Origin: a virus
Lineage: Duplodnaviria; Caudoviricetes
Direction: 5' to 3' (one strand)
Length of the DNA: 64,000 nt
IMG/VR virus record: IMGVR_UViG_3300010355_000588
This document shows positions 48,594 to 60,071 of the stretch, piece after piece. Under the pieces are notes generated by a model. That model did not search any database. It saw nothing but the letters and a program-made list of their open reading frames with translations, and was not told where the DNA came from. How positions within the stretch are numbered: position 1 is the first letter of the stretch; each line of letters starts with the position of its first letter. The translations under genes were made by a program, and so were the position numbers.

Positions 48594-49939
48594 TTCAAAA
48601 TCTCCTTGAGTTCTTTTAGTTCGTTCTTCCAGATGTCCTTGGCTGAAGTGGTGGCGATCTCGTTGTGTTGCTTGGTTTTTTGAGTTAGCTCAGTTTTCAG
48701 CCGTTCAAGCGATTCCTTGGTAAGCTGTCTGATGGGCGTGTTCAATAGATAGTCGAACGACCCGTTCTTCGTGACGATCTTGTCGGCCTTCTTTAGCTTT
48801 TCAATGACATCCTCTTCTGAGACATTGTACAGTTCGAGTTCCTTAGACATGTATAGCTTGATGAAGCATGCCCTGGATATCAGCCATGAGATTTCTTGCT
48901 TTAGTTCGGCCATTTGCTTCTGGCGTCTGAGTTCGTAATACCTCAGCCTAACTTCCATGTAGCGTTCGATAATGTCTTCGATGGATTTAGCCGTATCGTC
49001 GATGCGAATGTCCCCGTCGAGATTTAGATAGGTAAAGTTCTCAGTCACCGGCTTTACGAGCTTTAGAACGTTCTTCTTGAGATTCTGTTCGTCCTTTAGG
49101 AGTTCGGCAAGCTTCTGTCTAGTGAATGATACGACAAACTCAAAATGAGAATCAGTTGACTTATCGGCATAGTCGGAAATTACGTCGTCTTCCTGCAGCT
49201 TATCGAGCACCTTCACATATCCAGCCAGGTCATATTGTGGCGGAATCTCGGTTATATGGATGGTGTTGGTGTTCTTGACAGAATATAGTCCTTCGAACAA
49301 CCAGGAGCCATTTTCCTCAATGACCTTGCCTTTCCATCCAATATAATGGGGTGCCAATCTAGGTAGCTTGGTACCGTCGAGTCTAGCCAGCAGCCAGTCG
49401 ACTACCGTCTTTGGATTTCTAGGCAGAATTTTCTGGGCGAATCCAGTAGATATGCCTTCAGATCCGTTGATGGCGATCAGTGGCACGATTGGCAAGAGGA
49501 ACTTGGGCTCGATCTTGTCGCCTTCGAATTCCTGCTCGATTAGCACTGGGGTATCTTCTTTTCTGAAGATCTTCCAAATGTAGTCTTCGTAGCAGGTATA
49601 GATATACCTGGAAGCTGCTGCCTCTTGGATAGACCTGGTTCCGAACATGCCTTCCCTCTTGAGCAGGGGCAGGTTGTTCGATCCGACGAAGTTCTGAGCC
49701 AATCCAACAGCCACTCCGGTGAGCGACACTTCGCCGTGGATATAGGCGCAGAATTCTGCACATTTTGAAGACAGCTGGGCCACCTTGACCGGCTGCTTGA
49801 TATTATTGACCATTACTGTCCATAGAATCTTCCTAGCGCTTGTCTTCAGCCCATCGATATTAGAACCTATCTTACGATAATTGTCGTAGACTGAGTAGTC
49901 GCAATATTCGTTACGGAAGAAGCTGTCGATTTTCATCAA
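48590..49939 (-). CDS. DNA topoisomerase II medium subunit (gp52, GyrA-like)
   Basis: DGLKTSARK, YIHGE, FGTR, AASRYI (catalytic Tyr), GISTGF, TEIP. Confidence 0.95.
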   Translation of the reverse strand: MMKIDSFFRNEYCDYSVYDNYRKIGSNIDGLKTSARKILWTVMVNNIKQPVKVAQLSSKCAEFCAYIHGEVSLTGVAVGLAQNFVGSNNLPLLKREGMFGTRSIQEAAASRYIYTCYEDYIWKIFRKEDTPVLIEQEFEGDKIEPKFLLPIVPLIAINGSEGISTGFAQKILPRNPKTVVDWLLARLDGTKLPRLAPHYIGWKGKVIEENGSWLFEGLYSVKNTNTIHITEIPPQYDLAGYVKVLDKLQEDDVISDYADKSTDSHFEFVVSFTRQKLAELLKDEQNLKKNVLKLVKPVTENFTYLNLDGDIRIDDTAKSIEDIIERYMEVRLRYYELRRQKQMAELKQEISWLISRACFIKLYMSKELELYNVSEEDVIEKLKKADKIVTKNGSFDYLLNTPIRQLTKESLERLKTELTQKTKQHNEIATTSAKDIWKNELKELKEILK

Positions 49940-55590: not shown

Positions 55591-56155
55591 TCAGATCGAA
55601 AATAAATCGAAATTTTTCTGCTTCAGATACTCCTTACGCTTGTCTGCCTTGGAACTCGAAAGCCAGTCATCGACAATCTGGACGTCAGTAGCTTCGTCGA
55701 AGTCTATCTTGACTACGAATTTGTCCATGCCGACCTTCTTTACCAGATCGCGTAACTCCTCAGTCTTCCAGGTGCCAAGACCCTTGTAGTAATGTTGTTT
55801 ATATTTAGATACATCGTTCTTGGCGACGAAGGCCTGGTAGTCTGGAAGATTCATGAAATGGTGGACGATCTTTCCTTTAGAATCTTTCAGCGTGACAATC
55901 GGGGTCTGAAGCTTGTAGATGTTGTTCTTCAGGATTTCTTTGAAGTGCTTGTAAAAAAGACCGATGTAAAGACCAGTGATATGTGAACCAGTTACTCCCC
56001 AACTAACCATCACCATCAGCATCTGTAGCGATGATGATTTTGTCAAAGTTGCTGGTTCTATCTACCTGGTTGCAGTTCATGGTTCTTCTTACATTAGTCT
56101 GTTGTTGGTAGGCGTTCATATCTACCTTAGACTTGTTGATCTTTTTGAACTTCAT
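55591..56155 (-). CDS. Topoisomerase II small subunit (gp60-like) with a 19-nt coding gap; join(56155..56006, 55986..55591), 181 aa
   Basis: MKFKKINKSKVDM...NVRR...IIIATDADGDG, TAG, then SHITGL...TPIV...YYKGLGT...RKEYL in another frame. Confidence 0.85.
55987..56008 (-). other. Putative ribosomal bypass element
   Basis: GGT TAG TTGGGGAGTAACT GGT: matched codons, stop, hairpin, GGAG. Confidence 0.75.
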
Positions 56156-57705
56156 GGAGTATCTCCCTTTATTAGATTTTTCACGCCAATCCAAGACCCA
56201 TTTATCTCAATTTCGTCCTCTAATCGGGCTACTATTTTCTCTCCGTCTACTTCAAATTCGTACCATTCTTCAGGTTCTGCCTTCCCAATCTGTAATCCAC
56301 AGATCTGGAATATCTCCTGCATTTCTTTGTTGTCAATGATGCGCTTCTCGGTAGATTCATAGGCGTTCAACGGGACACCTCTAGAGCCATAGTAGGCGAA
56401 GTGCTTCCGACCAAAGGCTGCCGATAGACCACCCATGGCAGACATCCCTTCGCAGATGAAGAAAGCCTCAGGGGTGTCAGTAGCTGCCAAATATGCGTCG
56501 GACTTGATCTTCATCTTCTTGAGCTTCTTGTTGAATTCTTCGAGCTCCTTGTTCTTCTTATATTCTTCTCGCAGCTTGAAGATCTCCACGACCGGATCCA
56601 TCAACTTCTCGTTCTTGTAGATCTTGTCGTTGAGCTTCTCGAAGTCCAGACCAGCCAGAAACGCTCTAATCTCTCCGGTTGAGTTGGTTAGACGCTCCTT
56701 GGTTTGGCTGTCGAACTTCGGGTTTGGAAATCCCCTAAACACACAGACAATCTTCAACCGGTTGTAGATGTCAGCTGGCACGATGGTCTTATATTTCTTG
56801 ATTAGTTTGTTGCGGATCTTATAGGAAATCTCGTTGCAGATAAGATCCATGTGGTTGCCACCATTCTTCATGTGCAGTCCGTTGACATATGAAATGGTCG
56901 TGTAGCTATCGGTGTCAGATGGATATACCCCGAGCAAGAAATTGTCAGCTTCTACATATTCGAAGTCTTTTCCATAATATTCCAGATAAGACTTACCTGA
57001 TCTAACATCGATACGCTTGGTATTGAAGTAGAACTTGATCTGAGGAAAGGAGACAGCCAACTGGATAAGCCGTTGTTCAATGACATTCTGATGGTTGGCA
57101 TCGATCTCATTCAATCCAAAACGTTCAAGGTCAGGCGTGAATTGAACAATAGTGAACGAATTCTTGTGGGTGGCCTTCTTGATCTTGTACGACATCTTCT
57201 TGAGATTATCAGTACACTTAAGAATAAGCTTTTCCTTGCCAGAATATGTCTCAACGGAGAATTCCTTAGACCAGACGTTGGTGCAAAAAGCTCCGACGCC
57301 AAAGGATCCAATTGACTTTCTTTCTTCAACAAAGTTAGAACCGGCTTTCGCGTGGGTGAACGCCAGGACGGCCTTTGGCAGCTTTGTCCCCCTGTCGATG
57401 TCCACGGGAACCCCTCTTCCATTGTCTTCCACCTTGACAGAAGTCTTATCGATTGTCACGTAGATTCTATTGGCCTTAGCGAAGTCTGTCTTAATTGCTT
57501 CGTCTACGCTGTTGTCGATGACTTCATTGATGATTTTGGCAAGCCCTGGGACATATGTATATTTCTTGTATTCGAAGAGGTTGGACTCACGGTTCAAGAG
57601 AAAGCCTTCAGCCTCTACGTAGTTAATGGACCCGATGTACATGTCTGGCTTGGTAAGGACATGCTCCTCGTCGGTCAGCTTTCTAATTTCATTATTAGCT
57701 GCCAT
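56152..57705 (-). CDS. Topoisomerase II large subunit (gp39-like; GHKL ATPase plus the N-terminal half of TOPRIM)
   Basis: PDMYIGS, EVIDNSVDE, DNGRGVP, AGSNF, FDSQTKE, CEGMSA, RGVPLN; ends before the DxD motif. Confidence 0.95.
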   Translation of the reverse strand: MAANNEIRKLTDEEHVLTKPDMYIGSINYVEAEGFLLNRESNLFEYKKYTYVPGLAKIINEVIDNSVDEAIKTDFAKANRIYVTIDKTSVKVEDNGRGVPVDIDRGTKLPKAVLAFTHAKAGSNFVEERKSIGSFGVGAFCTNVWSKEFSVETYSGKEKLILKCTDNLKKMSYKIKKATHKNSFTIVQFTPDLERFGLNEIDANHQNVIEQRLIQLAVSFPQIKFYFNTKRIDVRSGKSYLEYYGKDFEYVEADNFLLGVYPSDTDSYTTISYVNGLHMKNGGNHMDLICNEISYKIRNKLIKKYKTIVPADIYNRLKIVCVFRGFPNPKFDSQTKERLTNSTGEIRAFLAGLDFEKLNDKIYKNEKLMDPVVEIFKLREEYKKNKELEEFNKKLKKMKIKSDAYLAATDTPEAFFICEGMSAMGGLSAAFGRKHFAYYGSRGVPLNAYESTEKRIIDNKEMQEIFQICGLQIGKAEPEEWYEFEVDGEKIVARLEDEIEINGSWIGVKNLIKGDTP

Positions 57706-57725: not shown

Positions 57726-58349
57726 TCAGACCTGCATCAATTTGACACAAGCCTTCTCGATGTCCATAGTCATGTAGACATCGAAGAGGGCGTCATGGGC
57801 GTCCGCCTTGGAGATATCAGTGTCAATCAGACCCATCATGCGAAGCGTATTGTATACAGTGGTTAGCTTGAAGTTGTTCATCTTTGTTCGGATAGAGGCC
57901 ATCGCATAAGAAGCCAACACCATAATATCCATCGTGTTGGACCAGAAGAAGTTGCCAAAGAGGAACTTCTGGTTGGCAAGCTTCTCGGTGAGCATATTCT
58001 GGTTTTCCTGGATGAAGTTGACGATGAAGTCCTTATCAAAGTGTGCGTTGTAGGCACAGAAGAACATCTTGTCCTGGGCGTCGAAGGGCTTGCAATGTCT
58101 GACGAGCAACTTCATAAATTCCATAAAGGCTTGTTCGTATGTCATATCCCTGGATTGGACGTCTTCCTCGGTCAACCCTGAGATCTTCAATGCTCGAAGG
58201 TCAATCAGCTTCTTGGTAGACGGAGAGAACTTCAGATCAAGGGTCTCGATGGTTTTGCCATCTTCAACCAGGATCGTACAAAGCTGATGGATGGAATGGT
58301 TCTTAGGATCCAATCCAGTGGTTTCGACGTCTACATAAAGCTTCTTCAT
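57726..58349 (-). CDS. DEDDh 3'-5' exonuclease (DnaQ-like)
   Basis: DVETTG, AYNAHFD, AHDALFD. Confidence 0.9.
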   Translation of the reverse strand: MKKLYVDVETTGLDPKNHSIHQLCTILVEDGKTIETLDLKFSPSTKKLIDLRALKISGLTEEDVQSRDMTYEQAFMEFMKLLVRHCKPFDAQDKMFFCAYNAHFDKDFIVNFIQENQNMLTEKLANQKFLFGNFFWSNTMDIMVLASYAMASIRTKMNNFKLTTVYNTLRMMGLIDTDISKADAHDALFDVYMTMDIEKACVKLMQV

Positions 58350-58418: not shown

Positions 58419-59087
58419 TTACCCAATTAATTCAGTAATATTCACGCCATTCTTACGGTCTTTCTCAGTTAGCCCACATTCATCGAGATTGCCTTGGATT
58501 CCAGTCATATCGCCATAAATTCCAGTCACATCGCCACGAATTCCATATATATGACCATGAATTCTAGTCACATCGCCACGAATTCCATATATATGACCAT
58601 AAATTCCAGTCACATCGCCACGAATTCCATATATATGACCATGAATTCTAGTCACATCGCCACGGATTCTAGACACATTGCCACGGATTCTAGACACATT
58701 GCCAAAGATTCCAGATATATCGCCGCGGATTCCAGTCACATCGCCGCAGATTCCAGTCACATCGCCGCAGATTCCGGATACATTGCCAGAGATTCCAGTC
58801 ACATTGCCTTGCAGACTATCAACATTGCCAAAAATTCCAGACGCGTTGCCAGAAATTTTGGAAACATTACCAATAATGCTAGACACGTTACCACGAAGCT
58901 CCGACACATCACCGCGAATGCCAGTCACATCGCCAGATATTCCGGTCACATTACCATAAATATTTGATACATCACCAGAAATTTCAGCAGCATCACCATA
59001 AATTTTTTCTATGTTGCCAGTGATATTTTTTGCATTCGTCAATTCTTTTTTGATTTCAATTTTCTTCATCATCTTTTTCATCGTCAA
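58419..59087 (-). CDS. 7-residue-repeat solenoid protein, paralog 3, 26 repeats
   Basis: Same repeat and C-cap; flanked by promoters 58373-58412 and 59112-59151. Confidence 0.8.
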   Translation of the reverse strand: MTMKKMMKKIEIKKELTNAKNITGNIEKIYGDAAEISGDVSNIYGNVTGISGDVTGIRGDVSELRGNVSSIIGNVSKISGNASGIFGNVDSLQGNVTGISGNVSGICGDVTGICGDVTGIRGDISGIFGNVSRIRGNVSRIRGDVTRIHGHIYGIRGDVTGIYGHIYGIRGDVTRIHGHIYGIRGDVTGIYGDMTGIQGNLDECGLTEKDRKNGVNITELIG

Positions 59088-59216: not shown

Positions 59217-60071
59217 TCAGTTCTTTTCTACCAGCCACTTGACGAACTTGTTCTTGTTGAGATACTTGCTTTCGAGAAGCGCCTCTTTTACGTCTGGTCT
59301 GATTGTAGAGGTATCGCCAACGAACATTGATTCAGTCAGCTTCGGCGTAGAATTCTTGGCGAATGGGAACTTGAGCATGTTGCCAAACGTCTCATAGTCC
59401 TTTTCATAGATATGGTACGAGACAGAATGGTGGATATATTCGCCAAGTTCGAGATCTGGATAGTTGTCGAGAAGCTGAAGCCTCATCTGCTGCATGAGAA
59501 GCGTGAAGAATGGAACATCATATACGATCCCGAAGAAAGCATCTGAACTGCGCATGAACATGGTCAGATTGAGCTTGTCATTCCGGATGTTGAAGACCCC
59601 GTTCAGCGTACAGACAAAGTCCTTATTGTCTTGGAACGAGTGGTATGGTTTGCTGAAGCGAACGATAGCCTGGCGAGTGTCCTCATCTTTTCTGAGCGCG
59701 TCGAGAGCCCATTCCCATTCCGTATAGCCAAATTCATTCTTTTCCTTGAAGATCGTATATCCATAGGCTGACGAGAGCTTTCCAGTTTCCTTGTCAGCCA
59801 ACTTGTTCCAGAAATTGGAATATTGGCTGATGTACTTGAGATCGTTCCGCCCGAGGAAATACCACTTGAGTTCGCCTTTGAGATATTTGTCGCTAGGGCT
59901 TCGATTGTCGTTCGAGTAAAGATTGCTATATGGATTGGTGAGTTGGAGCACCATATTCGATACTTCTTTCACCTCCATTCCTCTCGGAGATACTGTCGCC
60001 TTTGAATCCATTACAGCTTCAATGGACTGCTTATAGATTTCAGCAAACGTCGAACCTTTGATAAGTTGCAT
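59217..60071 (-). CDS. Thymidylate-synthase-fold enzyme, probable dCMP hydroxymethyltransferase
   Basis: SPRG, AYG, DTRQA, DFVCT (catalytic Cys), MRSSDAFFGIVYD (Asp in place of the TS Asn), SYHIYE. Confidence 0.8.
   Translation of the reverse strand: MQLIKGSTFAEIYKQSIEAVMDSKATVSPRGMEVKEVSNMVLQLTNPYSNLYSNDNRSPSDKYLKGELKWYFLGRNDLKYISQYSNFWNKLADKETGKLSSAYGYTIFKEKNEFGYTEWEWALDALRKDEDTRQAIVRFSKPYHSFQDNKDFVCTLNGVFNIRNDKLNLTMFMRSSDAFFGIVYDVPFFTLLMQQMRLQLLDNYPDLELGEYIHHSVSYHIYEKDYETFGNMLKFPFAKNSTPKLTESMFVGDTSTIRPDVKEALLESKYLNKNKFVKWLVEKN

Follow-up and report, generated by a model that had tools for sequence, protein, structure and literature searches.

Probable remains of a T4-type mobile cassette, with a predicted 19-nt translational bypass, in the split topoisomerase II genes of a metagenomic phage

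We analyzed a 64,000-nucleotide stretch of phage DNA (Duplodnaviria; Caudoviricetes; IMG/VR virus record IMGVR_UViG_3300010355_000588), called the window below. In this DNA, the large subunit of a type II DNA topoisomerase (topo II) is encoded by two overlapping open reading frames (ORFs), in the manner of genes 39 and 60 of phage T4. The second of them, ORF2, is interrupted by a stop codon and a short coding gap that the ribosome is predicted to bypass. The features of the locus are as follows.

57705-56152, minus strand: ORF1 (517 residues), the gene 39-like N-terminal part of the topo II large subunit, delimited from the ORF list, a domain search and alignments; it contains the ATPase, the transducer and the N-terminal half of TOPRIM, including the catalytic Glu (E419), followed by the appended tail.
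56155-56274, minus strand: C-terminal extension (CTE; the tail), ~40 residues, ORF1 residues ~478-517, not in unsplit relatives.
56163-56167, minus strand: GGGAG, a putative Shine-Dalgarno-like element 7 nt 5' of the ORF2 ATG, within the last CTE codons.
56152-56155, minus strand: ATGA overlap between the ORF1 stop TGA (56154-56152) and the ORF2 start ATG (56155-56153).
56048-56155, minus strand: unique part of the N-terminal extension (NTE; the leader), ORF2 codons 1-36, with Tyr16 and the NVRR motif.
56006-56047, minus strand: homR, ORF2 codons 37-50, presumed to be the copy of the TOPRIM strand and DxDxDG that the cassette brought; it ends with GGU (56008-56006), the take-off codon.
55987-56005, minus strand: 19-nt coding gap, counted as in T4 from the stop through the landing codon; UAG (56005-56003), then 13 nt including GGGGAG (56000-55995), then the landing GGU (55989-55987).
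55591-55986, minus strand: ORF2, second segment, read in the +1 frame over 131 codons and a stop (55593-55591); it covers TOPRIM from SHI onward and TOPRIM_C.
48632-49936, minus strand: gene 52-like medium (GyrA-like) subunit, ~5.6 kb downstream of the large-subunit ORFs (tblastn E = 4e-111; Pfam DNA_topoisoIV E = 1e-69).

A Pfam search found the HATPase_c (GHKL ATPase) and DNA_gyraseB (GyrB transducer) domains in ORF1, though not a complete TOPRIM, and TOPRIM_C (PF16898) in the second segment of ORF2 (E = 1.5e-14). ORF1 retained the EGxSA motif (E419) and ORF2 carried DxDxDG, which places the break inside TOPRIM, between the catalytic Glu and DxD. ORF1 was collinear with its unsplit relatives up to approximately residue 477, just ahead of the DxDxDG strand, and ended with ~40 unrelated residues. 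Since the unsplit relatives continue from this point straight into the DxDxDG part of TOPRIM, the ORF1 tail and the ORF2 leader are extra sequence. Thus the alignment and the ORF coordinates confirmed the original prediction, a reading of the sequence without database searches, of a GyrB-like gene that stops mid-TOPRIM with an extra tail and overlaps by ATGA with a leader-bearing gene.

That prediction had also taken the tail and the leader for homologs of T4 gp39 and gp60, and this was borne out. The ORF1 tail shared 17 of 37 residues (46%) with the tail of T4 gp39 (pairwise E = 4e-11), and ORF1 as a whole was 35% identical with gp39 (E = 2e-88). The gp39 tail quoted in the prediction matches the real T4 sequence. 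The 50-residue leader ORF matched the first 46 residues of T4 gp60 at 23 of 50 positions (pairwise E = 2e-13), and the match to the gp60 N-terminus had an E of 5e-5 against a whole 2.3-Gb phage collection. A word-index search with this ORF returned only the ORF itself, the query being too short for the method. Profile searches, which had been proposed as a check, recovered T4 topo II with both the tail and the leader. The CTE profile, built from metagenomic relatives with T4 left out, recovered T4 in the local set (E = 1e-17) and matched residues 474-515 of the solved T4 topo II chain 8yo3_C in a profile search of the Protein Data Bank (PDB; E = 4.9e-16). The NTE profile matched residues 517-561 of the same chain, in which gp39 and gp60 are fused (E = 1.6e-6), and the gene 60 nascent peptide in the ribosome structure 5np6_C (E = 9e-9). 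The N-terminal extension of ORF2 comprised unique residues and a part homologous to the deleted TOPRIM strand, as in the split/bypass cassettes of topo II, where ~30 unique residues are joined to ~15 homologous ones and the C-terminal extension of ORF1 has ~40-44 residues. The nascent-peptide residues that are important in T4, namely Tyr16, Gln19, Val22 and Arg23-24, were kept in the window leader.

At its C-terminus, the window tail runs five residues beyond the end of most tails; these are coded by the stretch with the GGGAG of ORF2 (56163-56167). The five extra residues fit a deletion that joined the tail end directly to the ORF2 start region.

The structure of T4 topo II offers a possible role for the added peptides. 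It was solved with gp39 and gp60 artificially fused (PMC11461880, Nature Communications), and the gp39 C-terminus and the gp60 N-terminus together form a ~70-residue insertion, a pendant domain outside TOPRIM. This TOPRIM insertion makes no DNA contact and has little effect on activity, and the authors favor a role as an assembly aid (PMC11461880). Because the window profiles match these very residues, we infer the same arrangement here: the tail and leader most likely fold together as a small pendant domain outside TOPRIM that would aid assembly of the two halves. The link to the pendant TOPRIM insertion of the solved T4 enzyme (PDB 8yo3, 8yo4, 9jnk, 9jor and 9lii) is one of sequence only. 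A complex prediction with the tail (44 residues, 15-row alignment) and the leader ORF (50 residues, 8-row alignment), run without controls, scored 0.28 against a mark of 0.32 and counts neither for nor against this arrangement. An origin of the tail from a Hint domain or intein was also considered and rejected. At a cutoff as loose as E = 10, none of 15 tails matched a Pfam family of Hint domains or inteins, the only matches being weak and SH3-like, and the PDB profile search with the tail returned T4 topo II and weak SH3 matches and no Hint domain. Furthermore, T4 gp39 and gp60 stay separate subunits (PMC11461880), which counts against a split intein.

The second break in the gene lies within ORF2. 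No matched codon pair other than the GGUs at 56008-56006 and 55989-55987 restores the reading frame together with the DxDxDG/SHI motif. UAG follows directly on the take-off GGU, which is codon 50 of the leader ORF, and GGGGAG lies 5 nt before the landing GGU (in T4, GAG lies at 6 nt), so that the series of signals known from bypass sites is present in the order GGU, UAG, GGGGAG plus 5 nt, GGU. A further GGU lies 15 nt past the landing codon but is less likely to serve as the landing site, because five conserved residues would be lost. Contigs from three other samples, built with other assemblers, had the same 231 bases over the junction and the gap, and two of these contigs are ~164 kb long; the frame break is therefore not an assembly error, as the same bases were obtained in four assemblies. 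A longer fold that pairs a segment ~45 nt upstream with the landing region was calculated on the single sequence (-32.6 kcal/mol; z = -3.2). A pattern scan of IMG/VR for further short-gap GGU variants gave 102 matches, which we ascribe to chance since none of them lay in a DxDxDG context.

From these signals, ORF2 is most likely made by translational bypassing. A ribosome with peptidyl-tRNA-Gly would stall on the take-off GGU with UAG in the A site, the tRNA would unpair, and the ribosome would slide 19 nt until the tRNA re-paired on the next GGU. Landing might be helped by anti-Shine-Dalgarno pairing with the GGGGAG 5 nt upstream of the landing codon. The predicted product is a protein of 181 residues with an intact DxDxDG/SHI motif.

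The split, the hop and their assignment to a mobile family have already been published for this very sequence and are not a discovery of ours. Manning and Atkins (2022, bioRxiv 10.1101/2022.08.31.505936) described it as MGS13, clade 12, from an anaerobic-digester metagenome. The window strings for ORF1, the hop-joined ORF2 and the bypass DNA match Table S2 and Files S2 and S3 of the preprint, and there is no sequence difference between the window and MGS13 (nMG4). The notes to MGS13 in Table S2 record that there is no endonuclease and that the TGA of ORF1 overlaps the ATG of ORF2, and "nMG4", the MGS13 row of the bypass alignment in File S3, is aligned exactly as we read it here. In the same work the T4 mobA region is described as a ~1.1-kb mobile element that has been inserted repeatedly into genes for the large subunit of phage topo II. 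Every insertion brings three parts: a C-terminal extension, an N-terminal extension that includes a homologous replacement region, and a bypass cassette. In many lineages the endonuclease is gone while the remainder has been kept, and six other clades include near-identical genomes with and without the insert. The widespread mobile family of split/bypass cassettes that the original prediction had anticipated is thus exactly their conclusion, with this locus among the cases. Manning and Atkins called MGS13 puzzling because an insertion in the leader shifts the slowing residues away from the take-off codon. They accept reduced stem-loop forms, for example in Aeromonas clade 6. The 19-nt gap of MGS13 is not discussed there, and only the Aeromonas clade is named as short.

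What is new here is the identity of the gap in three further assemblies, the comparison of gap lengths and stem-loops, the affinity of the leader (see below) and an error in the codons given in the preprint. According to its main text, MGS13 takes off from and lands on GAU, whereas the sequence and row nMG4 of its own File S3 have GGU and GGU, and there is no GAU downstream. For the Aeromonas short gap (File S3, clade 6), we counted 17 nt by the T4 convention, from the stop through the landing codon, where the preprint says 20.

T4 itself has genes 39, mobA and 60 with a 50-nt bypass (Bonocora et al. 2011, as cited in the preprint and in PMC11461880). The window and T4 are split at the same place in TOPRIM and share the homologous tail and leader, a Gly take-off codon of DxDxDG followed by UAG, a matched landing codon, a short Shine-Dalgarno-like element ahead of it, and conserved nascent-peptide residues. 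The window differs from T4 in having no endonuclease gene or remnant, a gap of 19 instead of 50 nt, no UUCG take-off stem-loop, a GGU instead of a GGA codon pair, four additional leader residues separating signal and take-off codon, and a backbone with only 35% identity. The cassettes of Aeromonas clade 6 (Aes012, AS-gz and others) resemble the window in a very short gap composed of stop, G-run, A/U-rich spacer and landing codon, and in a reduced take-off stem-loop. However, they have an Asp GAC take-off codon, a 17-nt gap, an endonuclease gene that is present or pseudogenized in most of them, and a T4-like backbone. The closest backbones (42-46%) belong to the Campylobacter phages of Firehammervirus (CP220, CPt10, CP21) and to metagenomic clades 9 and 10. 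ORF1 is split and tailed in this group, several members are endonuclease-free, and one (L010) has the same ATGA overlap as the window. In contrast to the window, the Campylobacter phages have no hop and encode ORF2 elsewhere in the genome, and clades 9 and 10 have an Asp GAC take-off codon, a strong stem-loop and gaps of 37-47 nt.

The original prediction was also right that the mobA endonuclease is missing. The four-base overlap leaves no room for such a gene between ORF1 and ORF2, and tblastn searches of the 64-kb window with five queries, MobA of RB55, Thanatos-1, S16 and fHyAci03 and the GIY-YIG-like ORF of L008, gave no match (best E = 0.4); VSR-type enzymes were not searched for. An endonuclease was present at the junction in RB55, S16, Thanatos-1, fHyAci03, PM2 and Stupor, as was a GIY-YIG-like ORF in L008, and it was lost, with other junctions, in the relatives L009 and L010. 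Endonuclease-free derivatives are part of the cassette family as defined by Manning and Atkins (bioRxiv 10.1101/2022.08.31.505936).

An endonuclease-free ATGA overlap like that of the window also occurs at 2872-2875 of L010, a Logan contig from a clade 9-like phage, but is combined there with a 37-nt GAC-UAG...GAC gap and a strong stem-loop. Therefore, loss down to a four-base overlap occurred more than once.

We consider it very probable that the topo II gene of the window was split by a mobile homing-endonuclease cassette of the T4 39/mobA/60 kind, that the endonuclease gene was afterwards deleted, and that ORF2 is now expressed by bypassing. The cassette would have split the large-subunit gene inside TOPRIM and left behind the ~40-residue tail, a leader of ~36 unique residues plus the copied DxDxDG strand, and a short non-coding gap. 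Deletion of the endonuclease gene would then have brought the ORF1 stop into overlap with the ORF2 start.

The evolutionary comparisons were based on several searches. Among 5.8 billion proteins, the nearest relatives were 45-48% identical and comprised both unsplit (~620-630 residues) and split (~505-520 residues) forms. A near-identity search of the phage collection gave no match, and an exact-peptide scan of IMG/VR with ORF1 found a single distant relative, whereas an alignment-based scan worked; 80 IMG/VR loci were fetched with an ORF1 profile. Only a minority of the 80 matched the tail profile, namely the Campylobacter phages, four split forms from metagenomes and one fused ORF out of three; in the other two fused ORFs, the inserts were recognized by eye. 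On a core tree of 66 rows, tail-bearing forms were scattered among unsplit ones, with at least 10 state changes by parsimony, and well-supported branches forced at least six changes for the split forms. This scatter agrees with repeated gain or loss. The window lay on a long branch together with two unsplit forms and L012 (fused, with inserts), with weak support, and its backbone fell into a major clade apart from that of T4, along with Campylobacter-phage-like and metagenomic forms. Together with the 35% identity, this upholds the claim of the original prediction that the enzyme is otherwise unlike T4 topo II.

The leader told a different story. Against Campylobacter-like and clade 9/10 forms, the core of the window was 43-46% identical and the unique leader 22-41% (27 columns); against T4-like forms, the order was reversed, with 35-38% for the core and 48-59% for the unique leader (27 columns). 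Likewise, the take-off codon is Gly in the window, T4, S16 and Thanatos-1, and Asp in clades 9 and 10. A tail-plus-leader tree (63 columns) placed the window on the T4-like side with a support of 95/93. Nonetheless, the approximately unbiased (AU) test did not reject a tree with the window among its core relatives (p = 0.198), and the tail/leader and core topologies are compatible as unrooted trees, so that incongruence is suggested by the reversed identities only. The comparison of tail/leader and core phylogenies called for by the original prediction thus favored a T4-like leader without forcing a conflict with the core. We read the reversed identities as suggesting a cross-group transfer of a T4-type cassette.

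Three of the IMG/VR loci (L012:3465-5567, L057:3441-5534 and L076:3432-5513) are single fused ORFs of 694-701 residues that have kept tail- and leader-like inserts. They are "healed" splits outside the Aeromonas clade of the preprint.

Several observations weigh against an invasion by a T4-type cassette followed by bypassing. No close unsplit relative was found among the 5.8 billion proteins (best 45-48%), which leaves the insertion without a date or a direction. Related cassettes carry MobA, GIY-YIG or VSR-type enzymes, and the lost endonuclease may have been other than MobA. Twelve other cassettes were extracted and 11 had a usable gap; Proteus phage PM2 was not counted, since the landing site called for it automatically proved to be a false hit. 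The gaps of these 11 were 37-52 nt long, compared with 19 nt in the window, and all 11 had a CC-UUYG-GG type stem-loop after the stop. No such stable UUCG-type take-off stem-loop was found in the window gap, which can form only a weak hairpin (7 bp with three G-U pairs, -3.2 kcal/mol, z = -1.5). The nascent-peptide signal lies four residues farther from the take-off codon than in T4, owing to the insertion in the leader. Finally, bypassing at this locus is a prediction from its sequence.

The alternative that survives best concerns the history of the split. The split with its tail and leader could be old and vertically inherited, or the cassette could have brought a GIY-YIG or VSR-type endonuclease instead of MobA, as related metagenomic cassettes do. 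We regard this as rather unlikely, if clearly worth keeping in mind. Vertical descent would agree with the failure to find a close unsplit relative, with the fused L012 gene and its tail- and leader-like inserts within the same weakly supported clade, and with the compatible unrooted trees (AU p = 0.198). Against this, cassette forms are dispersed across the core tree, which requires at least six to 10 changes, and the leader is closer to T4-type cassettes than to those of the core relatives (48-59% versus 22-41%), while the core shows the reverse (35-38% versus 43-46%). The Gly take-off codon is that of T4-type cassettes, in contrast to Asp in clades 9 and 10, and in six other clades near-identical genomes with and without the insert are on record in the preprint. 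For the lineage of the window, invasion followed by loss is nevertheless not distinguishable from older vertical inheritance. The history put forward in the original prediction is thus supported, to the extent that sequence allows, by the homology, the divergent backbone, the absence of the endonuclease and the dispersal of cassette forms on the core tree, although the lost enzyme may have been of another type than MobA.

Other accounts concern the expression of ORF2 and dispense with a hop. In the first, the locus would make three polypeptides: the 50-residue leader peptide would end at UAG, and the C-terminal part would have its own start at a nearby upstream AUG or GUG of the +1 frame; the AUG five bases ahead of UAG, for one, could be used by termination-reinitiation. 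The +1 frame is indeed open from 56046 and has three AUG codons and one GUG ahead of the gap, and ORFs of this kind (139-143 residues) have been called automatically in other assemblies. However, the AUGs arise simply from the GAU-GNU codons that specify DxDxDG and occur in T4 too, and no Shine-Dalgarno sequence precedes them. Separate initiation also leaves unexplained the matched GGUs at the motif boundary, the stop after the take-off codon, GGGGAG and the conserved nascent-peptide residues, and the homologous T4 site is known from the literature as an experimentally proven hop. We consider this account quite improbable.

Little more can be said for a simple +1 frameshift at GGU-UAG, in which the ribosome would slip by one base at the stop and translate the next 18 bases. 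The arithmetic allows it, as 19 is 18 + 1 and the +1 frame is stop-free across the gap, and +1 frameshifting is classically stimulated by a stop codon in the A site. Such a product would interrupt the most conserved motif of TOPRIM with six additional residues, and tRNA-Gly could not re-pair on the +1 codon. In addition, the Shine-Dalgarno-like element lies downstream of the site, whereas it is upstream in the known prfB type, and the homologous cassettes all hop. These points make a frameshift quite improbable. That gene 60 is a decaying pseudogene, or its frameshift an assembly error, is suggested by the in-frame stop followed by a change of frame, as in a broken gene, but is very improbable indeed given the 231 bases shared by four assemblies from different samples and pipelines, the intact downstream frame of 131 codons with its strong TOPRIM_C match, and a break exactly at the known programmed hop site with all of its sequence signals.

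For decades, the T4 gene 60 hop stood as an isolated oddity of translation; its origin is explained once it is seen as part of a mobile cassette that is widespread, and the natural variants of this cassette can serve work on the mechanism. Among the compared cassettes, the window has the shortest gap with a Gly take-off codon, and it is endonuclease-free and without a strong stem-loop. Being so compact, the locus is a natural case on which to test which bypass signals are really required. More tentatively, the locus could be a natural minimal bypass element with a T4/Straboviridae-type leader and Gly take-off codon in a Campylobacter-phage-like backbone, a possibility to which we give rather low confidence. 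If true, the cassette would have passed between phage groups that are far apart, and hops over short distances would not require the stem-loop.

Other observations concern the neighboring genes and related loci. Just upstream of ORF1, all on the minus strand, the window has an RNase T-type exonuclease gene (57726-58349; Pfam E = 2e-10) and a gene of the thymidylate-synthase fold (59217-60071; Pfam E = 2e-19); both are part of a block for nucleotide metabolism and replication that resembles that of T4. At 58419-59087, three genes upstream of ORF1, is the gene for a 222-residue protein that consists almost entirely of seven-residue G-[DN]-V-[ST]-x-I-x repeats and gave only weak Pfam matches of the coiled-coil type. 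In one related locus (L007:2552-3106), a gene with a Pfam match to the anti-defense family Tad3 directly follows a tailed split ORF1, and ORF2 is not nearby, as in the Campylobacter phages. Inteins were seen in the same topo genes. The intein of P0004 (543 residues) is inside the DxD motif of TOPRIM, a few residues from the cassette site, and those of L047 and L052 are in ORF1 near residue 420.

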